Below are positions 13,118 through 36,535 of a stretch of 36,592 nt of DNA, piece after piece (position 1 is the stretch's first letter; the number at the start of each line of letters is the position of its first letter). The position numbers and the translations under genes are program-made. The notes below the pieces were generated by a model, which made no database searches, was not told the origin of the DNA, and saw only the letters and a program-made list of their open reading frames with translations. Source of the DNA: an uncultured Verrucomicrobiota bacterium (lineage in GTDB: Bacteria > Verrucomicrobiota > Verrucomicrobiia > Limisphaerales > UBA9464); NCBI GenBank assembly GCA_903925515.1, contig CAIYFP010000024.1, positions 1 through 36,592 on the forward strand. The letters run 5' to 3'.

Positions 13118-14319
13118 ACCGCCGCGCCCTCCATGTCGCCCTGCTCATGGGCACCGCCGTCCTCCTCGCCGCCGGACTGTATCGTCTCTTCGTCCTCCGC
13201 TTCGCCTCCGGCGACATCTTCCCCCCCGCATCCTCCCGTCGCGCCGACCCCCTCGGCTCCCGCGCCCTCCATGATGCCCTCGCGCGCCATCCCCGGCTCC
13301 ACGTCTCCCGCAACCTCCTCCCCCTCGACCGCCTTCGCCCCGCACCCGGGCTCGCCGTCCTCGCCCTCGGCGTTCCCCCCGAGAACCTCGGCTTCCCGGG
13401 TGACTCGCCCGACTTCAACACCAACCTGCTGCGGCTCGCCCATGGTGGCGCCCGCGTCGTCCTAGGCGTCCAGCACGAGTCCCTTGCGCTCGCGACCAAC
13501 GCCATCCGGCAAGGAATCCGTTCCCTTGCCAACGCCATTCAAAACCCAAGCCCGTCACAATCCCTCGCCACCACCCTCGGCTTCGCCATCACGTCCGCCG
13601 CGACCCTGACCAACCCCGCTCCCGCCAACGCCGCCCCCACGAACCTCGCCGTCGCCACCGCCGGCCCCCTGCCCTCGCCCATCCCATGGCCGTCCCCATG
13701 GCGCATCACCCTTTCCCCAACGCCATGGACCTCCCTCTACCATGCCGACGACCAACCCGTCGTCGTCGAGCGCCCATGGGGCGCCGGCTCCGTTGTCCTC
13801 CTGGCCTCCGATTACCTCCTCTCCAACGAGGCCCTTCGTCGCACCCCGCAGCCCGCCTTCATCGCCGCCCTCCTTGGCCCGTCCACCCATGTCCTCTTCG
13901 ACGAAACCCACCTCGGCCTGACCTTCGAGCCCGGCATGGCCAGCCTCATCCGCCGCTACCAGCTCGGCGGCGCCGCGCTCGGCCTCGCCCTCCTCGTCGC
14001 CCTCTACCTGTGGCGCAACTTCGCCCCGTTCAACCCGCCCCTCGACCCCGCGCCTGCGCCTGACGTCATCCCCGGGCGCGGCTCCTCCGACGCCTTCCTT
14101 GCCCTGCTCCGGCGCGCGCTCCAGCCCGAAACCGTCGTCGCCGTCTGCATGGAGCACTGGCGTGCCGCCCATGGGCGCCACCCGCGCATCCCCGCCCGGC
14201 GCGTCGCCGATGCCCAAGATGTCCTCGACATCGAGATGGAACGTCCGCCCAAGGACCGCAACCCCGTCGCCACCTACCGCCGCATCGCCGCCCTTCTCCA
14301 CGAACGCAAACCCCGCTAG
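13114..14319 (+). CDS. DUF4350 domain-containing protein
   Basis: SSRRADPLGSRAL, GAGSVVLLAS...LLSNEAL, VLFDETHLG motifs; N- and C-terminal TM; lies before MoxR. Confidence 0.8.
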   Translation: MNRRALHVALLMGTAVLLAAGLYRLFVLRFASGDIFPPASSRRADPLGSRALHDALARHPRLHVSRNLLPLDRLRPAPGLAVLALGVPPENLGFPGDSPDFNTNLLRLAHGGARVVLGVQHESLALATNAIRQGIRSLANAIQNPSPSQSLATTLGFAITSAATLTNPAPANAAPTNLAVATAGPLPSPIPWPSPWRITLSPTPWTSLYHADDQPVVVERPWGAGSVVLLASDYLLSNEALRRTPQPAFIAALLGPSTHVLFDETHLGLTFEPGMASLIRRYQLGGAALGLALLVALYLWRNFAPFNPPLDPAPAPDVIPGRGSSDAFLALLRRALQPETVVAVCMEHWRAAHGRHPRIPARRVADAQDVLDIEMERPPKDRNPVATYRRIAALLHERKPR

Positions 14320-14323
14320 CCCC

Positions 14324-15289
14324 ATGGAACCCCACGTCGAAACCCTCCACCACGTCCTCGCCAATGCCCGCGCCGAGATCAGCAAGGTCATCATCGGCCA
14401 GCACGACGTCATCGACCTCGCCCTCGTCTGCGTCCTCACCAACCACCATGCCCTCGTCGAGGGCGTCCCCGGCGTCGCCAAGACCCTTCTCGTCCGGACC
14501 CTCGGCAAGGTTCTCGGCTGCGACTTCGGGCGCATCCAGTTCACCCCGGACCTCATGCCCTCCGACATCACCGGCACCCACGTCCTCAACCTTCAGCGCA
14601 ACGAGTTCGCCCTCGTTCGCGGCCCCATCTTCACCACGTTCCTGCTCGCCGACGAAATCAACCGCGCGCCCGCCAAGACGCAGGCCGCCCTCCTCCAGGC
14701 GATGCAGGAACGCACCGTCTCCATCGACCGCGAAACCCTCGCCCTCCCGCCCAACTTCACCGTCTTCGCCACCCAGAACCCCGTCGAGAGCGAGGGCACC
14801 TACCCCCTCGCCGAGGCCCAGAAGGACCGATTCATGCTCAAGATCCGCATGCAGGCCCCCGAACGCCCCGACGAGCTCATCCTCGCACGCCGCTCCCTCG
14901 GCGACGACGCCCCCGAGTCCATCCTCTCCCGCGGCGACGTCCGGCCCGTCATCTCCTCCGACGCCCTCCTCGCCATCCGCCGCCAACTCCTCCACGTCAC
15001 CGTCCGCGACGAGCTCGTCGCCTACGCCGTGGACCTCGTCCGCGCCACCCGCGCCTCCGAGTCCGTCCTCGTCGGCGCCGGCCCACGGGCCACCCAGGCC
15101 CTCCTCCTCGCCAGTCGCGCCGCCGCCGCCATCCATGGGCGCGACTTCGTCACGCCCGACGACATCAAGTCCCTCGCCGTCCCGGTCATGGAGCATCGCC
15201 TCATCCTCCGGCCCGAGTTCGAGCTCGAAGGGGCCTCCGTGGGCGAGGTCGTCGAGCGCATCCTCCAGGAGGTTGCCGTCCCTCGCTGA
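14324..15289 (+). CDS. moxR: MoxR family AAA+ ATPase
   Basis: Walker A GVPGVAKT, RIQFTPDLMPSDITG, Walker B LLADEINR, ATQNPVESEGTYPL. Confidence 0.95.
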   Translation: MEPHVETLHHVLANARAEISKVIIGQHDVIDLALVCVLTNHHALVEGVPGVAKTLLVRTLGKVLGCDFGRIQFTPDLMPSDITGTHVLNLQRNEFALVRGPIFTTFLLADEINRAPAKTQAALLQAMQERTVSIDRETLALPPNFTVFATQNPVESEGTYPLAEAQKDRFMLKIRMQAPERPDELILARRSLGDDAPESILSRGDVRPVISSDALLAIRRQLLHVTVRDELVAYAVDLVRATRASESVLVGAGPRATQALLLASRAAAAIHGRDFVTPDDIKSLAVPVMEHRLILRPEFELEGASVGEVVERILQEVAVPR

Positions 15290-15294
15290 CCCGC

Positions 15295-16614
15295 ATGCTC
15301 GTGCCGTCCCCAAGGTTGCTCGCCATGGCGGGGCTCGTCGTCCTGCCCGCGCTGGCCATGGCCGGGCTCGTTCCCGAGGCCGCCCACGCATGGACCGCGC
15401 TCGCGCTCGCCGCCGTCTTCGCGTCCGCCATCGACGCCCTCCTCGGCTGGCCTCGCATCGCCGCCCTCGACGCGTCCGCCCCGCCCGTCCTCCGCGTCGC
15501 CAAGAATCGCGCCGCCCACTTTCGAGTCCGCCTTCTCCACCCGGCCCGTCGCCCGCCCGTCCTCCGCATGGCCCTCGCCCTGCCCGACTCCATCCATGCC
15601 GAGCCCGCCGAGCACGTGCTCGCCCTGCCCGACGCCCCCGCAAGCCTCGTCGATTGGAACCTCACCCCGTCCGCCCGGGGACGGTTCCCGGTCCCCTTCC
15701 TGCATCTCGAGGCCTCGTCGCCCGCCGGGCTTTGGGCATGGCGTCGTTCCATCCCGCTCCGGTCTGAGGTGCGCGCCCAGCCCGCCCTTGGCGCCGCGCT
15801 CCGCGCCAACGCCGCCTTCCTTTCCAAGGCCCTCTCCGGCCAACGCCTCGTGCGCAACATCGGCAAGGGCCGCGAGTTCGAGAAGCTGCGCGACTACGTT
15901 GCCGGCGACCCCGTCGATGACATCCACTGGCGCGCCACCGCCAAGCGCGGCCATCCCGTCACCAAGGTTTTCCAAGTCGAGCGAACCCAGGAGGTCTATG
16001 TCGTCCTCGACCACTCCCGCCTCTCCGGCCGCGTCCTCGCCCCGCCCGAGCCGCTCCTCGAGCACTTCATCGAGGCCGCGCTCCTCCTCGGCGCCGTCGC
16101 CGAGCGTCACGGCGACCTCTTCGGCCTTGCCACGTTCGACTCCCGCGTCACCGGGATCGTCCGGGCCGACAACGGCCATGCCCATTTCAACGCCTGCCGC
16201 GAACGCCTCGTCACGCTCCAGCACCGGGCCGTCACCCCGGACTTCGACGAGCTCGCCTCCTTCCTCCGGACCCGCCTCCGGCGGCGCGCGCTGCTCCTGT
16301 TCCTCGTCAACCTCGACGACCCCGTCGCCTCCGAGTCCTTCCTCCGCGCCATCGAGGTGCTCCGACGCCAACACCTCTGCGTCGTCGTCCAGCCCCATGC
16401 CCCCGACGTCGAGCCCCTCTTCTCCCATGGCCGCGTCCACAACCTCGACGACATCCAGCGCGCCATGGCCGGGCACCTCCAGTGGCATGGCCTCCGCCAG
16501 CTCGCCTCCGTCCTCCACGCCCGCGGCGTCCCCATGGCCTCGGCCCCGCCCGAGTCCCTCGCCTCCGTCCTCGTCACCCGCTACCTCGACGCCAAGCGGC
16601 GCCAATCCATCTGA
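15295..16614 (+). CDS. DUF58 domain (vWA-like) protein, MoxR partner
   Basis: GREFEKLRDYVAGDPVDDIHWRATAK motif; N-terminal TM segments. Confidence 0.92.
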   Translation: MLVPSPRLLAMAGLVVLPALAMAGLVPEAAHAWTALALAAVFASAIDALLGWPRIAALDASAPPVLRVAKNRAAHFRVRLLHPARRPPVLRMALALPDSIHAEPAEHVLALPDAPASLVDWNLTPSARGRFPVPFLHLEASSPAGLWAWRRSIPLRSEVRAQPALGAALRANAAFLSKALSGQRLVRNIGKGREFEKLRDYVAGDPVDDIHWRATAKRGHPVTKVFQVERTQEVYVVLDHSRLSGRVLAPPEPLLEHFIEAALLLGAVAERHGDLFGLATFDSRVTGIVRADNGHAHFNACRERLVTLQHRAVTPDFDELASFLRTRLRRRALLLFLVNLDDPVASESFLRAIEVLRRQHLCVVVQPHAPDVEPLFSHGRVHNLDDIQRAMAGHLQWHGLRQLASVLHARGVPMASAPPESLASVLVTRYLDAKRRQSI

Positions 16615-24474: not shown

Positions 24475-25395
24475 TCACAATTCCAACACCCGGTCGCCGT
24501 CGGCGGCACCGGACTCCATCCACGCGACGAACCACTCCTCCATGCTGAGGGGGAACACGTTCACCCGGACGCCCGGCAAGGCGCGCACGGGGTCGAGCTG
24601 GGCGTCGTCCGTCACGCGCGCCAAGGCCGTGAGCACGGGGCCCATCCGGTGCGCCCGGAGCGTTCCCGGCACCTCGAGGCCCGGCGGCACCTCATGGCCC
24701 GGGACCACCACCTGGACGCGGCGCATCGTCCGTTGCCAGTCCTCGACGGCGCCCGTCGCCACCACGCGGCCCTGCTGCATCACCGACACGTGGGTCGCGA
24801 GCCGTTCCACGTCCGCCAACCCGTGCGTGCTCAGCAGCACCGTGCACCCGTCCGTCCGGACCAAGGCATCCACCAAACCCCGGAGGACGTCGCGTCGCGA
24901 CACCGGGTCCAGGCCCGCCGCCGGCTCGTCGAGCACCAGCACCTCCGCCCGCGTCGCCAACGCCAGGATCAATGCGGCGAGGCGCTGGTGGCCCCCGGAA
25001 AGCCGTCCCAACGGCCTGTTCCAAGGAACCTCCCAGCGCCCCGCCAGTTCGCGCGCCAGCCCGCTATCCCAACGCGCGAAAAACCTCGCCGACATGCGGC
25101 CCGTCTCCTCCAGCGTCATCCAAACCGGCGGGTGCCCTTGCTGCGACACATACGCCACCCGTTGCCGGTCCTCCGAGGTCGCCTCCCACCAATCCTTGCC
25201 CAGGAGCCGCGCGACGCCCGAGTCCGCCCTCAGCAAGCCCATCAGCAACCGGAGCGTCGTCGTCTTGCCCGCGCCGTTGCGACCCACCAACGCCATCACC
25301 TGCCCGCGCGCGACGTCCAGGTTGAGGCCGTTCACCGCCACCACGCCCCCGAACGACTTGCCCAGCCCGCGTGCATGGATCGCCGGAATTTCCAT
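24475..25395 (-). CDS. ABC transporter ATP-binding protein (YtrB/CcmA-like)
   Basis: Walker A GRNGAGKTT, signature LSGGH, Walker B VLVLDEP, H-loop STH. Confidence 0.95.
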   Translation of the reverse strand: MEIPAIHARGLGKSFGGVVAVNGLNLDVARGQVMALVGRNGAGKTTTLRLLMGLLRADSGVARLLGKDWWEATSEDRQRVAYVSQQGHPPVWMTLEETGRMSARFFARWDSGLARELAGRWEVPWNRPLGRLSGGHQRLAALILALATRAEVLVLDEPAAGLDPVSRRDVLRGLVDALVRTDGCTVLLSTHGLADVERLATHVSVMQQGRVVATGAVEDWQRTMRRVQVVVPGHEVPPGLEVPGTLRAHRMGPVLTALARVTDDAQLDPVRALPGVRVNVFPLSMEEWFVAWMESGAADGDRVLEL

Positions 25396-25398
25396 GGC

Positions 25399-25857
25399 TC
25401 AGGCCCTGCCCCCCGCCACCACCCGGAAGCGCACCGGCTCCGCCTCGTGCACGTCACGGTTCGGTTGCAAACGTTCCATCTCCTCGGAGACCAGCCCCGC
25501 GACGCGGCGGGCATCGACGCCGGCCTGGACGGCCTCGACCGCCAACTGCCGGGCCGCGCGGCGCAGGTCCTCAACCCGCCCGGCCTCGTCGGTCGGCCTC
25601 GAAGTCCCCGCGTTGGCGACGAACGCCCCCTTTCCATGGCGCATCTCCAGGGTGCCCTCGCGTTCCAGCTCGTTGTACACGCGAACAATGGTCGTGGGAT
25701 TCACCGCGATGGCCGAGGCCAGCTCGCGGATGGAAGGAAGCTGGTCGCCGGGCCGGAGGGTGCCGGAGGCGATGTAGTGGCGCACCTGGTCCATGAGCTG
25801 GCGATACGCCGGAATCCCAGACCGTGAATCCAACTGAAGATGAAGCGTCGCCGTCAT
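25399..25857 (-). CDS. GntR family transcriptional regulator, YtrA subfamily
   Basis: SGIPAYRQL, LRPGDQLPSIRELA, VNPTTIVRVYNELEREG, GKGAFV; short C-terminus; precedes an ABC ATPase. Confidence 0.93.
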   Translation of the reverse strand: MTATLHLQLDSRSGIPAYRQLMDQVRHYIASGTLRPGDQLPSIRELASAIAVNPTTIVRVYNELEREGTLEMRHGKGAFVANAGTSRPTDEAGRVEDLRRAARQLAVEAVQAGVDARRVAGLVSEEMERLQPNRDVHEAEPVRFRVVAGGRA

Positions 25858-25866
25858 CCGCGCCCT

Positions 25867-25909
25867 TGTTTGACTGTTGGAGAACACCCAAACAGCGGGG
25901 CGTTGTCAA
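25867..25909 (-). promoter_or_regulatory. Putative sigma70 promoter with overlapping YtrA-type operator
   Basis: Minus strand TTGACA (25909-25904), 17 nt, weak -10 TGTTCT; overlapped by TGTT-N12-AACA (25867-25886), resembling YtrA-family boxes. Confidence 0.55.
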
Positions 25910-26001
25910 ACCTCGGGACGGCACGGCTCCTGGGACCGCGCCCGTCCCCGGGCGCTGCCCATGCCCCAGCGGCGGGGGACGGCCGCGCTCCCAGGGCTCC
26001 C

Positions 26002-26409
26002 TCAAAACATCCGTTCCATCGGACCCGGTTGGCGCGACGGGGTCCAGTAGGAGGCGAGGCGCGGGTCGATCGGGTCATGCAGCGGACGTCGGCCCGCCCA
26101 GCGCAGGCACCAGCCCATCGGCCACAGGACCAACACGAAAACGACCGTGAGCAAAACCGCCCCGGTCACCCGCCCGAATTGATGCCCCGTCCAGCGCACG
26201 CCCCGGTACCAGCCGCGGAACCACGCCGGACGCGCCCATGCAACGCCAGCCACCAGCAACGCAAGCGAGCCAGCCACCGCCGCCACCGCCCATGGCCAGC
26301 GTCCGCGCCATGCCCCAAGCACGCAGACCAGCGTCAATGCCGCCACCGACGACATCGTGAGGTTGCGCCAGTCCCGGGCGTTCTCGCTGAATCGAAGTCG
26401 CGCGCTCAT
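26002..26409 (-). CDS. SxtJ family membrane protein
   Basis: Three hydrophobic segments, VLLTVVFVLVLWPMG, SYW and terminal MERMF; follows a carbamoyltransferase. Confidence 0.8.
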   Translation of the reverse strand: MSARLRFSENARDWRNLTMSSVAALTLVCVLGAWRGRWPWAVAAVAGSLALLVAGVAWARPAWFRGWYRGVRWTGHQFGRVTGAVLLTVVFVLVLWPMGWCLRWAGRRPLHDPIDPRLASYWTPSRQPGPMERMF

Positions 26410-26430
26410 GGGTGGGTTCGGCTCAAGGGT

Positions 26431-28266
26431 TCAGTCGCGCCCGGGCTCGAACACCTGGGGCACCGGCGCGGGCTGGCGCGATCGTTGCAACACCCGGTTG
26501 CCGATCACGAGCCGGTCCATCGCCGTGTTCACGAAGCAGCGGTAGGCGTCCTCCGGCGTGCACACCACGGGCTCGCCGCGGACGTTGAACGACGTGTTCA
26601 CCAGCGCCGGGCAACCCGTGCGCGCATGCCATGCCTCCAGCAACCGGCGGAAGCGCGGGTTGGTTTCCCGGTCCACCGTCTGGATGCGCGCCGACCAATC
26701 CACATGCGTGATCGCCGGCAACGTGGAGCGAACCCGACGCACCCGCTCCGACAAGTCCTCGCCCCCCTCCGCCCCAGGGGCCGCGCCGGAGGCATCGGGC
26801 CGACGCAACGCCTCGCGCACCGGCGCCACAAGCAGCATGTAGGGCGAATCCCCCTCCAGCTCGAACAACGCCGACGCATGCTCCGCCAGCACGGCGGGCG
26901 CGAATGGCCGGAAGGATTCCCGGAACTTCACCCGCAGGTTCATCCGCGCCTGCATCTCCGCCGAGCGCGGGTCCCCGAGGATCGATCGATTGCCCAACGC
27001 CCGCGGCCCGAACTCCATGCGTCCCTGAAACCATCCCACCACCTCGCCCGCCTCCAGCCATGCCGCCGCGCGGTCAAACAACTCCTCGTCCTCCATCCGC
27101 TCATGGACCGCGCCCATTCGGTCGAGGACGGCGGCAACCTCCGCGTCACCGTGCTCCGGGCCGAGGCAGGAGCCGTGCATGGCGTCGAGTCCACCCGGCG
27201 ATGGACGCGGCTGGCGTGCGTGGAGATGCCATGCCGCGAGGGCGGCCCCGAGCGCGCCGCCGGCGTCACCCGCCGCCGGCTGCACCCAGACCTTTTCAAA
27301 CGGGCCCTCGCGCAGGATGCGACCATTGGCCACGCAATTGAGCGCCACGCCGCCCGCGAGCGCGAGGTGACGTTCACCCGTTCGCTCATGCGCCCTTCGC
27401 GCCAGGCGCAGCATGGCTTCCTCGGTCACCACCTGGATGGAACGCGCCATGTCGGCATGACGCGCCAGGATGCGTTCATCCGGTTGCCGTGGAGGGCCGC
27501 CGAGCAACGCGTCGAACCGCTCGTTCGTCAGCCGTTGCCCTCGCAGGAAGTCGAAGTGCTCAAGGTTCAGCCGGAACGACCCGTCGGCGCGCAGGTCGAT
27601 GAGCCGGTCACGAATCACCTTCTCGAACGCCGGCCGGCCGTAGGGGGCCAGCCCCATGAGCTTGTACTCGCCCGAGTTCACCCGAAACCCGCAATGGGCC
27701 GTGAACGCCGAGTACAGCAACCCCAAGGAATGCGGGAACCGGACTTCCTCCAGCGCCTCGAGCCCATCCCCCGAGCCATGCCACAACGTCGTCGTCGCGT
27801 ACTCGCCCACGCCGTCGATGGCCAGCACCGCCGCCGAGTCGAAGGGCGACGGGTAAAACGCCGACGCCGCGTGGGCCTGGTGATGCTCCGTGAACAGGAC
27901 CGGCACGGATTCCGGCAGGCCGCCCAGGTCGGCCCGGATGCCCCCGCGGGCGTCGAGCTTCTCCGAGAGCCAGCCCGGCGCGAACCGCACGAACGTCCCC
28001 AGCCCGCCCGGCACGAGCCCAAGCACCGTCTCGAGGAAGCGCGCGAACTTGGGGATGGGCTTGTCATAGAAAACCACCACGTCGGGCCACTTCCCGCCAA
28101 GCCCTGCTCGTTCCAGGCAAAACCTTGCGGCATGCACCGGGAACGCGTCGTCGTTCTTCCTTCGCGTGAACCGTTCCTCCTGCGCCGCCGCCACGACCTT
28201 GCCATCCACGACGATGGCCGCCGCCGAGTCGTGGTAGTGGGCCGAGATGCCGAGGATGGATTGCAT
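26431..28266 (-). CDS. Carbamoyltransferase, CmcH/NodU family (SxtI-like)
   Basis: GISAHYHDSAAA, EHHQAHAASAFY, GEYKLMGLAPYG, AGGVALNCVANG, GRMEFGPRALGNRS, KFRESFRPFAP, NTSFNVRGEP. Confidence 0.96.
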   Translation of the reverse strand: MQSILGISAHYHDSAAAIVVDGKVVAAAQEERFTRRKNDDAFPVHAARFCLERAGLGGKWPDVVVFYDKPIPKFARFLETVLGLVPGGLGTFVRFAPGWLSEKLDARGGIRADLGGLPESVPVLFTEHHQAHAASAFYPSPFDSAAVLAIDGVGEYATTTLWHGSGDGLEALEEVRFPHSLGLLYSAFTAHCGFRVNSGEYKLMGLAPYGRPAFEKVIRDRLIDLRADGSFRLNLEHFDFLRGQRLTNERFDALLGGPPRQPDERILARHADMARSIQVVTEEAMLRLARRAHERTGERHLALAGGVALNCVANGRILREGPFEKVWVQPAAGDAGGALGAALAAWHLHARQPRPSPGGLDAMHGSCLGPEHGDAEVAAVLDRMGAVHERMEDEELFDRAAAWLEAGEVVGWFQGRMEFGPRALGNRSILGDPRSAEMQARMNLRVKFRESFRPFAPAVLAEHASALFELEGDSPYMLLVAPVREALRRPDASGAAPGAEGGEDLSERVRRVRSTLPAITHVDWSARIQTVDRETNPRFRRLLEAWHARTGCPALVNTSFNVRGEPVVCTPEDAYRCFVNTAMDRLVIGNRVLQRSRQPAPVPQVFEPGRD

Positions 28267-28290
28267 GGGGCGGCCGGGCGGGGTGCGCCG

Positions 28291-28449
28291 CTACATGAAC
28301 GGGTACATGAACGGCGCGAGGGCCGAGCTGGAGCTGAAGACGATGATCGCGCCCAGCAACAACAGCACGGCCACGACCGGGAGCAGCCACCACTTCTTCT
28401 CCCGCCGCAGGAAGACCATGAACTCCTTGAACGCCTGCCACATGGCCAT
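28291..28449 (-). CDS. DUF5989 (SxtK-like) small membrane protein, 52 aa, absent from the ORF track
   Basis: Manual translation MAMWQAFKEFMVFLRREKKWWLLPVVAVLLLLGAIIVFSSSSALAPFMYPFM*; KKWWLLP and APFxY signatures; GAAGGGGG RBS-like site. Confidence 0.88.
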   Translation of the reverse strand: MAMWQAFKEFMVFLRREKKWWLLPVVAVLLLLGAIIVFSSSSALAPFMYPFM

Positions 28450-28458
28450 GCCCCCTTC

Positions 28459-29211
28459 TCAAGCCCCGCCCACGAGCGAGCGATACCGCGCCACGCGCCC
28501 GGGATCGACCTCGCTCACGAGGAACTCCGGCGCGCGCAGCTCCTTGCCCATGAACACCCGCGTGTTCCGATGCTCCATCCGGCTCTCCACCGTCCGGCTC
28601 CCGCTCACGTGGACCTCCCGCGCGCCGGTCCGCGCGAGGACCTTCTGGACGTTGTGCTCCCGGATCCCGCCGCCCGGCATCACGATGATCCGGTCAGCCG
28701 CCCGTTCCATGAGCGCCGCGATCGCATCCACGCCCTCCCAGACCGTCGCCTCGCCCCCCGACGTCAGCACCCGGTCCACGCCCAGTCGCACCAGCGCCTC
28801 CAGCGCCTCGCCGAGGTCGCGGGTCATGTCGATGGCCCGATGGAACGTGACGGGCAACGGCCGGGCCAAAGCGACCAACCGCGCCGTGCGTTCCTCGTCC
28901 ACCGTGCCGTCCGGCCGAAGCAACCCGAGCACGATCCCGTTCGCGCCGGCGTCCTTGGCCGCCACGACGTCATGCCGCATCACGTCGAGCTCGTCGTCCG
29001 AATAGCAGAAGTCGCCGCCGCGCGGTCGGATCATCACGTTCAGGGGCAGGTCCACGGCCGCCCGCATGGCCTTGAGCAGCCCAAGGCTCGGGGTGGTGCC
29101 CCCCTCGAACAGGTTCTGGCACACCTCCAAACGGTCCGCCCCACCCGCCCGCGCCGCCCGCGCCGACGCCACGGAATCCACCAGCACCTCAATCAAAACG
29201 CCCGTTGCCAT
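28459..29211 (-). CDS. cutC: Copper homeostasis protein CutC family
   Basis: GGADRLEVC, EGGTTPSLG, VMIRPRGGDFCYS, TFHRAID, RVLTSGG, IMPGGG-like and EVHVS motifs. Confidence 0.95.
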   Translation of the reverse strand: MATGVLIEVLVDSVASARAARAGGADRLEVCQNLFEGGTTPSLGLLKAMRAAVDLPLNVMIRPRGGDFCYSDDELDVMRHDVVAAKDAGANGIVLGLLRPDGTVDEERTARLVALARPLPVTFHRAIDMTRDLGEALEALVRLGVDRVLTSGGEATVWEGVDAIAALMERAADRIIVMPGGGIREHNVQKVLARTGAREVHVSGSRTVESRMEHRNTRVFMGKELRAPEFLVSEVDPGRVARYRSLVGGA

Positions 29212-30874: not shown

Positions 30875-31246
30875 GAGGCAAAGGGGTCACATCTAAACTA
30901 TTGACATTTCGGGCGGCACGGATGGTGGGCGTCTCCTGCCGCTCTTGCGGAGAACCTCCCACGCCGCCGTCACCCGGCTGCTGACGCCAGCCCAGCGGCC
31001 CGGGGCACAAGGGCGGGTGCATGGACCGAGTCGCTCGCCGAGGCGTGGATGCCGAGAGCCGACGGCCCGGCGAGCCATCCCCCGCTGGACGAATCGGGGC
31101 AGTTATCCGGGGGCAGCTGGTGGCCCGACGGCGGGTCCGGACAGGAGACGAGTTGTTGCGCCAAGGACCCGGGATCCTGCATGGGCCCGTTTCACCCAGG
31201 GTCACTCGAACAAATGTCAATAGTTTAGATGTGACCCCATTGCCTC
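30875..31246. mobile_element. Non-coding element bounded by 35-bp inverted repeats (REP-doublet/MITE-like)
   Basis: 30883-30909 ggggtcacatctaaactattgacattt is the exact reverse complement of 31212-31238; extends to 35 bp with one mismatch; ~300-nt interior with no convincing ORF. Confidence 0.75.
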
Positions 31247-31439
31247 ACTCCCGCGTCGCCGAACTCACCCCCACCGCCTGGAAAGCCGCCCGCAAGCCCT
31301 GACATCCCCTCACTCTGCTCTCACCCAGCACCCCCCGCCTAGACGCAGTTCCCCAGACGGATACCCTGCTCACCGCCTCCGACTCCACCAAGGGACGCAT
31401 GTGGAACATCCTGCTCGCGTCGCGCCGGGTGACGCTTAC
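31246..31439 (+). mobile_element. tnpC: IS66-family right-end remnant: last 18 codons of tnpC plus right terminal IR
   Basis: HSRVAELTPTAWKAARKP* (stop 31300-31302) matches the IS66 TnpC C-terminal pattern; terminus CCGGGTGACGCTTAC at 31425-31439 (GTAAGCG end). Confidence 0.75.
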
Positions 31440-31709
31440 CGAGTGGCGGGCTCTGGGTCTCCACGAAGCGCAGCGGGGCGACCGGTTCCCTTTGAGGCCG
31501 CCCGACCGGCATCGGCTTACGACCCGGGCGTCCGAGGTGGTCCCGGCCGGCAAAAGTGAAATATTTGACCCCAACCAGGGCCGCAAAAGCGACGGCGTTC
31601 ATGCCGCTGGCGGCGAACTCCGCAAGAATCCGCTCCCTCTGTTCGGTGGGCATGCGCCCGCGCCCGTGGGTGTCGGCCGCGACCGGCCGGTCTCTTCCAT
31701 AGGTGTCAT
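31440..31709 (-). pseudogene. tnpA: IS66-family tnpA (orf1) pseudogene, frameshifted and truncated
   Basis: MTPMEETG / frameshift / DTHGRGRMPTEQRERILAEFAASGMNAVAFAALVGVKYFTF...LRFVE; cut at 31440 by the other IS66 end. Confidence 0.8.
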
Positions 31710-31753
31710 AGCACAAACGCTATGACAATTATGACGTGCCGAACAAGGTTGCC

Positions 31754-31768
31754 CCTGGTAACGCTTAC
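31754..31768 (-). mobile_element. IS66 left terminal inverted repeat
   Basis: Minus strand GTAAGCGTTACCAGG, 13/15 identical to GTAAGCGTCACCCGG at 31439-31425; lies ~45 nt upstream of tnpA. Confidence 0.75.
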
Positions 31769-31911
31769 CGCTCCCCGACGAAAGCAGACAAAACCTGTCC
31801 AAGGGGATCATCGATACCTCGCATGACCCTCAAACCGCGCAGCCCAAAACCCGGTTTCAGCACAACACCGGGTTTCTCAATAAACCGTTAAAGCAGGCTT
31901 GAATCCACCTG

Positions 31912-32430
31912 TTACTTGGCTTTCCCTGTAGATGGTGAACCATTTCGCCGAAACTCCACCATAGGTTGAGCGCAAATATGAATCTGATGATATCGAACCG
32001 AAGTTCCTGCGCGTGGTGATACTAGAAGCCCACCCGTCTCATCAGCATGCAGGTAGTATTCAAGTGATGCCAAAAGTTTAACCTCTGCCATTTCGCATGC
32101 AATTCTGTGGTGGAAGACGGTTACACCGGCTGCTGAAACAATTGCGTGCCATCCAAGCCGTGGTTGCCGCACTGCGCGATGTGCAGAATACGCAATGTCA
32201 GAATCGCTGGGATGAAAAGCAAGGCGCTTATCAATCAGCGTGCAATCATCTGGGTGGACATGTGCGATACAGTTCTCCTGCACGAGAATAAGTCGCTTAC
32301 CACCTCGGATAATTGCAAGTTGGTTGTAGTCATTAACAACGACCGCTAACTCTCCACCAAACCTACAGGCGTGACTAAATAATTCCCGCGCTAAAATCCT
32401 GCCAGAGTGAGATGAGGAGATCAGACTCAT
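31912..32430 (-). CDS. Hypothetical protein, possible degenerate HIT-like motif
   Basis: ATG 32430 overlaps the AKR stop (ATGA); PRAGTSVRYHQIHI near the C-terminus. Confidence 0.6.
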   Translation of the reverse strand: MSLISSSHSGRILARELFSHACRFGGELAVVVNDYNQLAIIRGGKRLILVQENCIAHVHPDDCTLIDKRLAFHPSDSDIAYSAHRAVRQPRLGWHAIVSAAGVTVFHHRIACEMAEVKLLASLEYYLHADETGGLLVSPRAGTSVRYHQIHICAQPMVEFRRNGSPSTGKAK

Positions 32431-33170
32431 CGGCAATAATCGCATAATTGGCGAATGGTTCGCGGCGCCACCACGATTCTGCAGCCTTTGCCAGAGGGAA
32501 TTCGCTCAATCATGCTGCGGATAAAGTGCGCCTTAAGGCACTTCTGCAATGGCAATCCAGCGATAAGTGTTCCACCTATAAACACTTCCCTCACCACAAT
32601 ATTGTACTTCCTCTCCAGCGCACATCTTCTGGCGGAGTCATTCATCAAGTCGCGAAGAGAAACCATAATGGAATCAATTGGAGAACCCTCGGCGATATGA
32701 TCGCTGTCGCCAATACTACAAAGGGACACTCCGATTCGACACTCGGCACCCAAAATCGTCCGTATGCGACGTGTTAGATCCTCCAGGACAAATCCCTGCA
32801 ATATCCTTGCGGGTGGGTTGTGGAAATACACTCTGGATACGTGCAAACCATTCAGTCGCTTTAAGCTACCCTCTAAGCTACTTTCTATGGCTTTTGGGGA
32901 AAAATCAACCTTTGGAAAAGGCTTATGATTAATATCAACACCAACTTTGGTTTCGACGCAGCAATGCAATCCGTGTAGAGCTTCCCCGAGCAGAACTTCA
33001 GCTCGGCCTAGAGCGTATAGTGGCGCTGTGTCGAAGTAGCGAAATCCAGCCTTATGAGCCGCTTTGAGAACTGCGATAGCCGATCTTGGTTCTCTCGGTC
33101 GCAGAATAGTTCCATCAAAGGAGCCCGCAACCCGCATCGTGCCATAAACTAGGTTGTCTCTGAGGAGCAT
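32427..33170 (-). CDS. Aldo/keto reductase (short, 247 aa)
   Basis: LVYGTM, GFRYFDTAPLYALGRAEVLLGEAL, VETKVG, SLEGSLKRL, YFHNP, IGVS; D-Y-K-H tetrad present. Confidence 0.9.
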   Translation of the reverse strand: MLLRDNLVYGTMRVAGSFDGTILRPREPRSAIAVLKAAHKAGFRYFDTAPLYALGRAEVLLGEALHGLHCCVETKVGVDINHKPFPKVDFSPKAIESSLEGSLKRLNGLHVSRVYFHNPPARILQGFVLEDLTRRIRTILGAECRIGVSLCSIGDSDHIAEGSPIDSIMVSLRDLMNDSARRCALERKYNIVVREVFIGGTLIAGLPLQKCLKAHFIRSMIERIPSGKGCRIVVAPRTIRQLCDYCR

Positions 33171-33179
33171 GTAATAATG

Positions 33180-34049
33180 CTAGGAATCGAAACAGAAGGG
33201 GGCACATGCTTCCGTATGCCCGGGTGGCCCTTTTGTGAACCGATGAATGCCGGCTCTTAGTTCCTCCCGACTCATTGAGATTGCCAACTGGCCGTCGTCG
33301 GCGTATGGACATAGTCTGACAGACCCCGAAGCACTAACGAAGAGCTTTTTAGACTGGCAGCGTGCCCGGTTTTCGCTTCCAGTGAGGAGTCTGAACGCAG
33401 CCATAAGTTCCTGCCCAATCGAAAACCTCCCCTGTAAGAGTGCATAGTCTCGATGAAGTATATCGAAATAAACCTCTTTGCTCAGGCGTTGTTCCAAGAG
33501 AATATCGGCGGACAGATAAAGAAAGCTGAGCGCAAGTTGCGGATGACCGAGCCTGTCAACAATGTCGCAAATCGTGCTCACTTCAATCTCACTAAGTCTG
33601 AATATATTAAGATGAATAGATTTTGATGAGCGTTCTGGAAGCGCACGAAACAAATCTGCTGCAGTCTCAAAATGACGTCTCGTGTTACCCACGAGGGCTG
33701 CACCTGTAGAGTCCGCCGAAAATGTAATGTGAGAAAGTAGTGGCAGAACCGCGCTTAATCGATCCAGTGGATATTCGGGGCGTGACGCTGTTATAATCGA
33801 TACAGAGAAGCCGTAACGCACAAGGAGAGAGACCATTCTTTCAAAGTAAGGATGATCAGTTGGTTCGCCGCCAGAGAGGCAAATGTTCTGAACTCCTACT
33901 TCCCTCAATCGGCTAGCAATCAACCCTAGCCTGTCCATCGTTAACACTGCTTGCCCTTTATCTGCGCGGAAGCAGAATCCGCATGCGACCCTACACGCAT
34001 CGGAGACACTGACTACTGCATCCCTAAATTGCCAATTCTTGGTGTTCAC
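33180..34049 (-). CDS. Radical SAM enzyme with Twitch-type C-terminal extension
   Basis: CRVACGFC, LSGGEP, FSAD; C-x10-G-x4-C and terminal CAPFC; GTG start abuts upstream TAG. Confidence 0.9.
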   Translation of the reverse strand: MNTKNWQFRDAVVSVSDACRVACGFCFRADKGQAVLTMDRLGLIASRLREVGVQNICLSGGEPTDHPYFERMVSLLVRYGFSVSIITASRPEYPLDRLSAVLPLLSHITFSADSTGAALVGNTRRHFETAADLFRALPERSSKSIHLNIFRLSEIEVSTICDIVDRLGHPQLALSFLYLSADILLEQRLSKEVYFDILHRDYALLQGRFSIGQELMAAFRLLTGSENRARCQSKKLFVSASGSVRLCPYADDGQLAISMSREELRAGIHRFTKGPPGHTEACAPFCFDS

Positions 34050-35378
34050 CTATTGAAGCCCCGTCATGTCCCAAATAGCCGATTCGATCGCCCTTCGAAA
34101 AAGACTACAATGCTCTGGGTCTGGAGTTTCACATCCGCTAAAATAAGCGTGTGATAGAGGCGGTCCGCCACAAATTGCAATTGCTGGGCATTCTAAGCAA
34201 TCGTTAACAGGAAGTAGGGTTTTAGTGCCTTTTGAAAGGTCAACTGATTTTGGATTCAACCCAGCGACAGGTTGCCAGAGTCGCCGGTCTGTCCAAAATA
34301 GATCTGAAAGACTAACAACGCCGCCCGGTAACAATGCACCAGTCATTGAACCATCAATTTCTTCTAGCAATCTCGGGGTTCGCGTATCCAAAGCTTGATA
34401 AACTCTATCAAGCAACGAATGAAGAACAGCTCCCCTCGACAATGCGCGCATCCGAGCTTTCGACAATGCATCCGCAAGTTTAATTCCACTAATCTTCTCA
34501 TGTCCCTTTGCAGGGATCGGATCATTGACATAGATGAAATTGATATTCAAATCATCTATCAAATATTCGACAATATCTGGAATGTGTTCGACATTTCTTA
34601 CGGTCGGGGTTAGGTTGGCACCCAAGTAGATGTCGGGAAACTGACGGAGTTGATTTATATTAGCCCTTAATTGTGAGAAGTAGCTGTTTCCGCTGAGCAG
34701 CTTCCGTTCACGGTGGTTCATTTCCTCAGATCCATCAATTGATACACCAACTCCATAATTGAATTTCGCAAAATGCGAGAGCATTTCTTCGGTGAACCGC
34801 ACGGCGTTTGTGACGATTGTCCTGCGGACTCGTCTTACGCGGTAATCCTGACGCAGCGTTTCAATGTACTGATCTCCCTTTGCGATCAGGTCAAATCTAA
34901 GTGTCGGTTCACCCCCAAACCATTGAATTGTCACTTCATCCTGACCTTCGTTATGTTGGAACAGAAACTGTAGTCCACTTTGTAACTCGCTTTCAGATAG
35001 GTCGGGAGCCCCAGAGTTGGTGTTGACGAAACAGTAAGAGCAATTCAAATTGCACTTTGTGGTGACGACTATTCGAAGGCCGGTAATGCGGCGCGGCTTG
35101 GTTGGTAGCGAGAGACTTTCTAATCGTCTTGTGATAGCTTCTAAAGCCAGGTCTCGAGTCGGTATTTCTCGACTACTACAGCCGATGCCTTCTAAATAGC
35201 GAGTCATCTCCCCCTTTTTCTCGTTCTTCATGAAATCGCTATATTCATGAGAATCCAATTGAACACTCTCAAGTGAGATCGGATCGAATACTACAGCCTC
35301 GTTCTCGTGGCTATATACAAACAGACCGTTGCGTTTCGGTGGGGGTGGATAGGGTTTTGATGTTTTCGTCTTTATCAT
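34050..35378 (-). CDS. Radical SAM enzyme, anSME/SPASM-like, with ~90-aa N-terminal extension (possible RRE)
   Basis: CNLNCSYC, WFGGEPTL, IVTNA, VSIDG; CLECPAIAIC...EHC; N-terminal YSHENEAVVFDPISLESVQLD. Confidence 0.93.
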   Translation of the reverse strand: MIKTKTSKPYPPPPKRNGLFVYSHENEAVVFDPISLESVQLDSHEYSDFMKNEKKGEMTRYLEGIGCSSREIPTRDLALEAITRRLESLSLPTKPRRITGLRIVVTTKCNLNCSYCFVNTNSGAPDLSESELQSGLQFLFQHNEGQDEVTIQWFGGEPTLRFDLIAKGDQYIETLRQDYRVRRVRRTIVTNAVRFTEEMLSHFAKFNYGVGVSIDGSEEMNHRERKLLSGNSYFSQLRANINQLRQFPDIYLGANLTPTVRNVEHIPDIVEYLIDDLNINFIYVNDPIPAKGHEKISGIKLADALSKARMRALSRGAVLHSLLDRVYQALDTRTPRLLEEIDGSMTGALLPGGVVSLSDLFWTDRRLWQPVAGLNPKSVDLSKGTKTLLPVNDCLECPAIAICGGPPLSHAYFSGCETPDPEHCSLFRRAIESAIWDMTGLQ

Positions 35379-35398
35379 CTGCTGAAGGATTCGGTTGG

Positions 35399-35801
35399 AT
35401 GTTGGTCAAGGCATTCTGCGCTCCGGCTTAGCCGGGCAACACCCCACGGACGTTGTTCAACGAATAACTTAGCTGAGCCAGCTAACAGAGGAATGACGGG
35501 AGAGCCAAGCTGGGAGCGCCTCACAATTTGTGTTTTGGAACGGCTGGGTAGGTTTGTGCCGGCTAGTTGCTAAGATACATCATCTTGTCGCTGTGATTTT
35601 GAAAACCTCCAATGTTTGACTGTTTGTTGACAGAAGGACGACCCAGGTCTGAGTATTCCGGTCATGTGGCCGCTTCCTAGAACGTAAGGAGCCTCGGCTT
35701 TCTTGCGTCCAAGACGCGCTGCTCGATCCTAGCTGTTAAGATACCATTCTTCGCCTAAGAGACAGTGACCGTCTCCAATGATACTCTTGGGATTGACCGA
35801 A
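35399..35801 (-). repeat. Three degenerate tandem units (~166-nt period), putative structured ncRNA array
   Basis: Cores 35801-35729 and 35635-35563 align ungapped at 42/73 with blocks TTCnGTCAA, CATTGGAG, GTATCTTAnCAnCTAG; weaker third core 35464-35399; compensatory hairpin changes. Confidence 0.6.
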
Positions 35802-35916
35802 CCCTTTTCTATGGCTATACCCTGTGACTAAACTAATCGGGATCTGACTTTTTCAGGGCAATGCAATTACCACTATTTGGCAGCTCCTCGGTGACAATTG
35901 GAGGGCTTCGAGCTTT

Positions 35917-36375
35917 CTAACTAGTCTTTTTCTTCTTTTTGGGCTTTTTTGCCTTGTCAAGCTCACCAATGATGCGCGCGACTTCTTCTTCGTAGGCCAG
36001 TTCTACCTTCTCATCCTCAGCGTTCATTACTTGCGTAGGTATCTCGATAGCTGCCGCAAGATCACGAACTAATTGAACGTGAGTCTCTTGAAGTCGCTGT
36101 GTGTCCTTCTGACCAGCACCGTCCGCAAGGACGATAATCCCAGGCAGGGTGGGGTTTGGCGCGAGGAGCACGATGCCTCTTGGCTCTTCGCGAACGGCAA
36201 TTATCGCGCCCTCAACTGGGATCCAAGCAACTTTGTCCTTGATTGCTTCCATCAGCAGTGTCTGGCGCTTCTTGAATTCTTTGCGGTCGCCAAACCATAC
36301 GCCTGCTTTGGCCTTGGAAGCGGGGGTGGTTACGGGGATCAAATGATCCGTTTTGAGTGGTCGTCTTTTCGGCAT
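35917..36375 (-). CDS. Hypothetical protein with basic N- and C-termini
   Basis: 152-aa ORF in lower-GC DNA, ATG start, plausible alpha/beta composition, KAKKPKKKKKTS tail. Confidence 0.75.
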   Translation of the reverse strand: MPKRRPLKTDHLIPVTTPASKAKAGVWFGDRKEFKKRQTLLMEAIKDKVAWIPVEGAIIAVREEPRGIVLLAPNPTLPGIIVLADGAGQKDTQRLQETHVQLVRDLAAAIEIPTQVMNAEDEKVELAYEEEVARIIGELDKAKKPKKKKKTS

Positions 36376-36455
36376 ACGTTGGACAATTTACTTGCGCTCA
36401 ACTGCGATTGGCAAGTTGATTTTTGGGAACGTGTTACGGATGGGCGCAGGACGAA

Positions 36456-36535
36456 TTGCGCCAGAATGTTTGTTACCGGCGGGGGTACTGGGCGAAGGGG
36501 GTGGAGGGATCGTTGCGCCAGAAGTCCTGTTACCG
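36456..36535. repeat. Direct repeat, 23 nt x2, 57-nt period
   Basis: ttgcgccagaa-tgtt-tgttaccg (36456-36478) and ttgcgccagaa-gtcc-tgttaccg (36513-36535), 19/23 identical. Confidence 0.75.

Follow-up and report, generated by a model that had tools for sequence, protein, structure and literature searches.

A conserved cassette of a small folded protein and two radical SAM enzymes that recurs beside extra aspartyl- and glycyl-tRNA synthetase genes

Genes and features of the locus

The DNA considered here (hereafter the window, 36,592 nucleotides) is the complete contig CAIYFP010000024.1 of a 4.59-Mb assembly (67.6% GC) from an uncultured Verrucomicrobiota bacterium. Near its right end, a variable island contains five open reading frames (ORFs). 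Three of them form a cassette, a small folded protein followed by two radical S-adenosylmethionine (SAM) enzymes (rSAM1 and rSAM2), that recurs in other genomes beside additional genes for aminoacyl-tRNA synthetases. In the following sections, we describe the locus and its relatives and then consider what the cassette may produce.

All features of the gene set lie on the minus strand. The small folded protein (152 amino acids; positions 35917..36375) matches no family above cut-off, including those of Pfam and NCBIfam, and is separated by a spacer of 538 nucleotides (35379..35916) from rSAM1 (442 amino acids; 34050..35378). The next gene, rSAM2 (289 amino acids; 33180..34049), shares with rSAM1 a CxxxCxxC motif, and the two proteins exceed the Pfam Radical_SAM cut-off with 39.1 and 49.4 bits, respectively. 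They are followed by an accessory gene for a short aldo-keto reductase (AKR; 247 amino acids; 32427..33170), which scores 57.9 bits against the Aldo_ket_red cut-off of 24 and contains the tetrad motifs (D47, Y52, K75, and H117), and by ORF5 (172 amino acids counted from the overlapping ATG; 31912..32430), a probable JAB/JAMM-type metallopeptidase. The five minus-strand ORFs, their joins of 0 nt, 9 nt, and ATGA, and the presence of two radical SAM enzymes and an AKR are as the initial annotation of this DNA had stated.

Two other labels of that annotation have to be withdrawn. The spacer, described as a repeat leader, contains fewer repeated 5- to 9-mers than 200 shuffled sequences (for 6-mers, 24 versus a mean of 36.6), folds no better than the shuffles (z +0.9), and holds a single 16-nt imperfect two-copy repeat; it occurs at this locus only, none of the 89 related loci giving a significant match to it, and the short frames within it have no Pfam match. 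A leader acting as a repeat or RNA element is thus ruled out by the repeat counts, the folding, and the absence from related loci, and the leader signal looks like noise. The second label concerned ORF5, which was called HIT-like. The HIT motif is HxHxHxx, and the JAB/MPN+ motif is E...HxH...SxxD. Since ORF5 reads H57-V-H59-P-D, with the third histidine missing, it is ruled out as a HIT protein on the motif; it has no Pfam match at E 1 and no NCBIfam match. ORF5 and its sole homologue (38% identical, same gene order) both keep E27, H57-x-H59, and S75-x2-D78, and so both contain the JAB/MPN+ motif, with a spacing that exceeds that of RadC-type JABs. Alignment to a RadC-type JAB by hhalign gave a weak match (E 0.008, probability 5%), the AlphaFold2 (AF2) model was unusable (predicted local distance difference test, pLDDT, 35), and the fold search yielded nothing usable. 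A further homologue search returned ORF5 itself and nothing else, and searches of viral contigs, the Atlas, and PDB sequences found no ORF5 homologue.

The foreign and mobile origin proposed for these genes is supported. The GC content is 48.5% over positions 31912-36375 versus 69.5% over 1-30800, as the earlier remark on lower GC implied, and the small gene is present in 0 of 59 relatives of the source genome. The island (31216..36481) is a single unitig between two host repeats. Its left boundary is an element resembling a miniature inverted-repeat transposable element (30875..31246) with 35-bp terminal inverted repeats, found on more than 30 contigs of the same assembly; its right boundary is the beginning of a second multi-copy repeat, located where the contig ends (36452..36592), which matches six other contigs of the assembly and at which the read depth jumps. 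In run X1, from which this DNA may derive, the island forms one unitig of 5,266 nt with a depth of 10.6 versus 34.9 for the flank (~0.3), and its depth is ~0.3-0.4 of the flank in all four runs of one study (X1-X4). Because of this reduced depth, the island is probably carried by part of the population. Note that both joins of the island run through repeats, so that its exact chromosomal place is not independently established, and that the contig ends at 36592 inside a repeat, with any genes past that point out of view.

Two further features of the window can be mentioned. A degraded ORF at 31339-31716 has no Pfam match and resembles a fragment of an IS66 TnpA. At 24475-29211 there are genes that, by their appearance, encode an ABC ATPase, a GntR-like regulator, and carbamoyltransferase-like and CutC-like proteins; these belong to the host and are unrelated to the island.

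The conserved three-gene core

Gene neighbourhoods were compared in 86 loci, consisting of the best 80 of 224 genome matches to rSAM1 and six family-level loci of 80 from metagenomes. The small gene is present in 84/86 loci and rSAM2 in 83/86, AKR in five, and ORF5 in one; the five core misses comprise four contigs that end inside rSAM1 and one rearranged 3.9-kb contig. The conserved unit is the small protein with rSAM1 and rSAM2, and AKR and ORF5 are accessory and swappable. The candidate system of the initial annotation is therefore compact, mobile, and outside the named families, as supposed, and its genes co-occur widely elsewhere, but its boundaries were drawn wrongly, since the core has three genes.

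The sole relative with all five genes in the order of the window is found in a Cupriavidus assembly, whose rSAM1 is the nearest relative of known context (100/100). This cassette has an RHS-type gene on one side and an integrase on the other, and an extra 313-amino-acid gene of no family follows ORF5 (L001:4984-7323, 13402-14343, and 15037-15666). Of 251 evenly sampled Streptomyces genomes, the centre genome included, 24 carry the cassette, 17 of type I and 7 of type II. No match was found among plasmids and phages, nor in 400 other genomes of class Actinomycetes, in which only 11 candidates were scored per genome; three viral contigs carry the cassette. Damaged copies also exist: one cassette is truncated within rSAM2 (L052), and in another the small gene is interrupted by an insertion-sequence transposase (L246:9457-11247).

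The genes surrounding the core vary. Accessory redox genes, namely those for a JmjC cupin, AKR, PhyH, P450, YcaO-TfuA, and RlmN-like proteins, swap among loci, and the gene after rSAM2 in the relatives is a cupin or an AKR. In particular, a JmjC-like cupin follows the cassette in 76 of 89 loci, and type II loci have an AKR (7/7) together with two PhyH genes. Subtype IIa further has a P450, an adjacent glycyl-tRNA synthetase (GlyRS) of the fused alpha-beta form, and often YcaO-TfuA. Mutual exclusion of cupin and AKR was rejected, since two loci (L245 and L248) carry both. A conserved protein of ~630 amino acids is encoded upstream of type IIb cassettes (L222:13081-14979, L223, L224, and L247); it has a His-Gly/Ser-Cys pattern, which recalls caspase-like proteases, and a Cys-pair ribbon, and no family or structure match was found for it. 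The actinomycete loci are flanked by SARP or XRE-TPR regulators.

An anti-phage function was also considered, with a logic related to that of prokaryotic viperin or of HXS, an anti-phage system with the gene order HxsD-HxsB-HxsC-HxsA in which HxsC and HxsD form a complex, according to its description (PMC13128918). The cassette is mobile, has a patchy distribution, and is carried by only part of the population; its gene order is HXS-like, and viral contigs carry it. We nevertheless judge this function very unlikely, since an HxsA-like effector is neither in the island nor conserved among the neighbours, the PADLOC matches are confined to the radical SAM core, and the flanks of the actinomycete loci hold antibiotic-type regulators and extra synthetases.

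The radical SAM enzymes and the small protein

rSAM1 has an N-terminal extension of ~100 amino acids without a Pfam match and a reduced SPASM-like tail with four invariant cysteines (394, 397, 403, and 424), also without a SPASM Pfam match. Its family is tight: it comprises 43 proteins including rSAM1 itself, the others being 38-58% identical to it, after which there is a sharp drop to generic radical SAM proteins. The best NCBIfam matches are all peptide maturases, below their cut-offs (PapB, 111.8 bits against 340; HxsB (TIGR03978), 91.7 against 370), and none of the 25 NCBIfam matches listed reaches the cut-off of a named radical SAM family. The best solved relatives are 5WGG (which we take to be CteB), 9GM3, 4K37, and 8VPO (presumably TigE). 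rSAM2 has a short C-terminal cysteine cluster of the twitch type, whose pattern is kept in 80 aligned rows, and its core weakly matches viperin and MoaA.

The small protein belongs to a small family, with 16 matches in 1.84 billion representatives, two of which are spurious repeat proteins. Although it was initially described as a basic protein, the basic tail is not conserved; conservation is found in residues 1-112. Its identity to the Cupriavidus copy is 77%, versus 37-52% for the other four genes. Its AF2 model (pLDDT 76, with residues 16-21 below 50) has a TBP-like/KA1-like fold: it matches domain 4 of phosphoglucomutase (VIA Z 10.2, root-mean-square deviation 1.8, 77 aligned residues) and KA1 domains (Z 8.2-8.8), and the matches include the KA1 domains of METTL16 and TUT1, the N-domain of RNase H3, and Pcc1. 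The poorly ordered N-terminal arm contains the invariant residues R5, K8, H11, L12, S20, and K23. KxxxW is the streptide-like motif; such a reading of K23-x-G-x-W27 was dropped because W27 is part of a strand in the model and is lost in distant homologues. We regard the small protein as the best candidate for a precursor (scaffold) or an adaptor.

Another question is whether the three proteins modify a nucleotide, an aminoacyl-adenylate, or a tRNA, with the TBP/KA1-fold protein as an RNA-binding subunit; the neighbouring synthetases would then accept the modified tRNA or resist the adenylate mimic. The METTL16, TUT1, RNase H3, and Pcc1 matches would fit such a role, as would viperin and MoaA as the best, albeit weak, matches of rSAM2, the RlmN-like genes near 10 of 89 loci, and the HAD and NUDIX genes that recur nearby. 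On the other hand, rSAM1 groups with peptide maturases, and the YcaO-TfuA and JmjC neighbours, which represent mainly peptide-modifying families, point to peptide modification. Moreover, tRNA genes are found in just 8 of 60 loci (plus one tmRNA gene), and none of them is for Asp, Asn, or Gly. On balance, we consider nucleotide or tRNA modification unlikely.

Linked aminoacyl-tRNA synthetases

An archaeal-type non-discriminating aspartyl-tRNA synthetase (AspRS) is encoded near 72 of 89 loci, in addition to the housekeeping AspRS. In the Streptomyces sample, this extra AspRS is found in 17/17 genomes with type I, 0/7 with type II, and 6/227 without the cassette. Type I corresponds to one clade, and a subclade nested within it has instead, at a different position, an AspRS paralogue that is 42% identical. 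Both paralogues are preceded by T-box leaders, detected at E 8e-20 to 8e-10 with scores under the gathering threshold, and their specifier position is GAC in 84/84 aligned leaders, unrelated islands included. Examples before mobile archaeal-type AspRS genes are L002:14353-14584, L063:13055-13287, and L055:2016-2250. The second link involves GlyRS: the alpha-beta form is found in 18/251 genomes, with 5/7 of type II (adjacent to the cassette in four) versus 13/244 of the others.

Two neighbourhoods of AspRS genes are worth recording separately. At L231:7233-16834, the second paralogue lies beside genes for a pyridoxal phosphate enzyme and for ornithine-cyclodeaminase-like, arginase-family, and PhyH proteins, a set that presumably resembles a diaminopropionate-based cluster for an Asp/Asn analogue. 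At L228:16302-19338, a different radical SAM pair, one member of which is MoaA-like, lies near another copy of the same AspRS.

The identity of the linked synthetase is matched by residue 19 of the small protein, which we scored over 103 loci and the window. Asp19 is found in 83 loci, 77 with AspRS and none with GlyRS; of the six without AspRS, five are cut short and one is decayed. Gly19 is found in 14 loci, eight with GlyRS and none with AspRS. The remainder have Ala (two) or Met (one) or are unscored (four); the window copy has Ala19, with no synthetase visible in the window, and the Cupriavidus copy has Met19. Seventeen fixed differences separate 75 type I proteins from 6 GlyRS-linked proteins, and residue 19 is the only one of them that changes Asp/Asn to Gly. 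Ten loci were added later, of which four repeat earlier genomes; in the six new ones, Asp19 occurs with AspRS in 3/3 and Gly19 with GlyRS in 1/3. Fisher tests are overstated here, since related loci do not count as independent, and no weight is placed on them.

Proposed pathway

Because the cassette recurs beside spare AspRS and GlyRS genes, its three proteins likely make an amino-acid-like inhibitor of protein synthesis. We propose, with a probability of roughly 40%, that they belong to an undescribed pathway of the type that yields peptides made by the ribosome and then modified after translation (RiPPs), in which a residue on a folded scaffold is modified to give an amino-acid mimic. The radical SAM pair would modify a single residue within the flexible arm of the accompanying small protein, the candidate site being residue 19. 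Accessory oxidoreductases would finish the product, AKR acting as the reductase in the version of the window, and the predicted JAB-type peptidase ORF5 may then free it. The freed mimic would poison the matching aminoacyl-tRNA synthetase, and the extra synthetase may give the producer self-resistance. The initial annotation had envisaged a pathway modifying a nucleotide, RNA, or peptide, possibly defensive; chemistry on a peptide or amino acid, with tRNA synthetases as the target, fits the evidence better than nucleotide modification or anti-phage defence. Its statement that no protease or obvious precursor gene lies in the window has become doubtful in view of the JAB-type motif in ORF5 and of the small protein as a precursor or adaptor candidate.

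A more ambitious form of the scaffold proposal seems doubtful to us. In this form, the cassette would be a programmable antimetabolite factory, whose scaffold and radical SAM pair are reused across phyla, whose residue 19 (Asp, Gly, Ala, or Met) sets the mimic, and whose producers recruit the matching synthetase as immunity. If it were correct, one codon change would retarget the antibiotic.

Several observations weigh against the scaffold proposal. The same AspRS with its T-box occurs on unrelated islands at seven loci (those of the six cassette-free genomes and that of an additional copy in one genome with the cassette), and a SerRS gene is also found near eight type I loci. The match between residue 19 and the synthetase comes from two or three lineages, and one such match in 17 fixed differences would arise by chance in about 1 of 7 cases, as a rough estimate that was not computed. 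Five Gly19-type loci (L222-L224, L245, and L247) have no GlyRS within 16-20 kb. A single AlaRS gene was found in the source genome and a single MetRS gene in that of Cupriavidus, so that neither Ala19 nor Met19 is accompanied by a second synthetase. No peptidase is seen in most loci, the assignment of ORF5 to JAB is a prediction at the motif level only, and the fold of the small protein is common to RNA-binding adaptor domains. Finally, six GlyRS-linked type IIa loci encode a 33-amino-acid double-glycine precursor; in one of them (L078), genes for a C39-ABC transporter and a condensation-domain protein come after the precursor, beside the extra GlyRS. A conventional substrate thus exists in type IIa, and GlyRS could be a donor.

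Concerning the AlaRS gene, note that the single copy of the source genome (contig C312:12210-14001) is missing ~128 positions at the start of the profile, where it meets DNA of 30-46% GC. The truncation is probably an assembly chimera, which calls for caution with low-GC contig ends in this assembly.

The precursor (L078:668-4540, L248:1321-1422, L072, L218, L221, and L249) has the core x-F-x-[IV]-x3-C-V-I, and the L078 region is possibly an undescribed hybrid cluster of RiPP and nonribosomal peptide synthetase genes. The main alternative gives the small protein a different role: it may be an adaptor of the HxsD kind, the third subunit of a maturase, the substrate being a separate peptide or protein. 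In type IIa, the substrate would be the double-glycine precursor, and in the window, some other molecule or one encoded past the contig end; the role of the synthetases would be to supply activated amino acids or to confer protection from the finished peptide. Besides the precursors and the L078 arrangement, the gene order is that of HxsD-HxsB-HxsC, and this order, together with the HxsC-HxsD complex (PMC13128918), favours an adaptor role. In addition, the small protein is modelled as a folded, adaptor-like domain, and rSAM1 resembles thioether-forming maturases, as would suit the cysteine in the precursor core. Several facts reduce our confidence in the adaptor role, which we hold only tentatively. 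The double-glycine precursor was not found in loci of type I or IIb, nor in the window or the source genome, and type I loci yielded no short separate precursor that is conserved. In addition, the precursor operon is divergent from the cassette and several kb away, past the GlyRS gene, and therefore may be a fused second cluster. An adaptor role also leaves the Asp/Gly match at residue 19 unexplained. If it were correct, the cassette would represent another lineage of HXS-like maturases, and subtype IIa would make a new RiPP.

If the scaffold proposal holds, amino-acid mimics would gain a new biosynthetic route, and there would be a class of antibiotics directed at tRNA synthetases. About 1 in 10 of the sampled Streptomyces genomes (24/251) carry the cassette, which no named family matches. 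Its two uncharacterised radical SAM families and unnamed small-protein family come with clues to the target, namely AspRS/GlyRS and the Asp-type T-box, and therefore both product and target can be tested directly in culturable strains.

Comparison with known systems

HXS is similar to the cassette in that both are mobile and share the order of small protein, long radical SAM enzyme, and short radical SAM enzyme; HxsB is also the second-best NCBIfam match of rSAM1. However, the matches to HxsB (scores given above) and HxsC (TIGR03977; 15.3 bits against 267.9) are below cut-off, and HxsD (TIGR03976) is matched neither by the window protein nor by six homologues; the alignment of the small protein lacks the LYW and LLNDYxLRE motifs. 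Among the island ORFs there is no effector of the HxsA kind, with a signal peptide, a peptidoglycan-binding domain, and His-x-Ser repeats. The cassette is found mainly in Streptomyces and is linked to tRNA synthetases and oxygenases, whereas HXS is described mainly from Gammaproteobacteria. Prokaryotic viperin differs as well (NF038283, 35.5 bits against 180), with PADLOC matches that span the first 40-60% of the profile.

The maturases of ranthipeptides and cyclophanes (PapB, SCIFF, and YhhB; 5WGG, ChlB 9GM3, and 8VPO) form the clade nearest to rSAM1 in sequence and share with it the N-terminal extension and the C-terminal cysteine cluster. rSAM1 differs in that it is below all cut-offs and has just four invariant tail cysteines, and the cassette in that it has a near-obligate second radical SAM enzyme and a folded small protein. 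The window has no Cys-rich precursor; a short precursor with a cysteine is encoded in the six type IIa loci and in none of type I.

The logic proposed for the cassette is that of pearlins such as 3-thiaglutamate, amino-acid analogues that are assembled on a scaffold of ribosomal origin and then freed by proteolysis (PMC9016710). None of the five island genes encodes a PEARL (LanB-like) ligase or a TglHI-type oxidase (in related loci, some of the neighbours were annotated), and the pearlin residue is appended from aminoacyl-tRNA, whereas the proposed site of the cassette would be internal, gene-encoded, and modified by radical SAM chemistry. Clustered translation-fidelity genes are known to mark amino-acid-analogue pathways, and AlaX tRNA deacylases have been mined for this purpose (PMC13149037). 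Such clusters share with the cassette self-protection at the level of translation and differ in that the cassette recruits whole synthetases, not AlaX.

The cassette was not found in the portions of the open literature that were accessible, including PMC13149037, PMC13118837, and PMC9062424, although tables from genome mining of radical SAM enzymes and RiPPs could list it. It is real and widespread, an apparently undescribed variant of a known pathway logic, and belongs to neither the HXS systems nor the pearlins.

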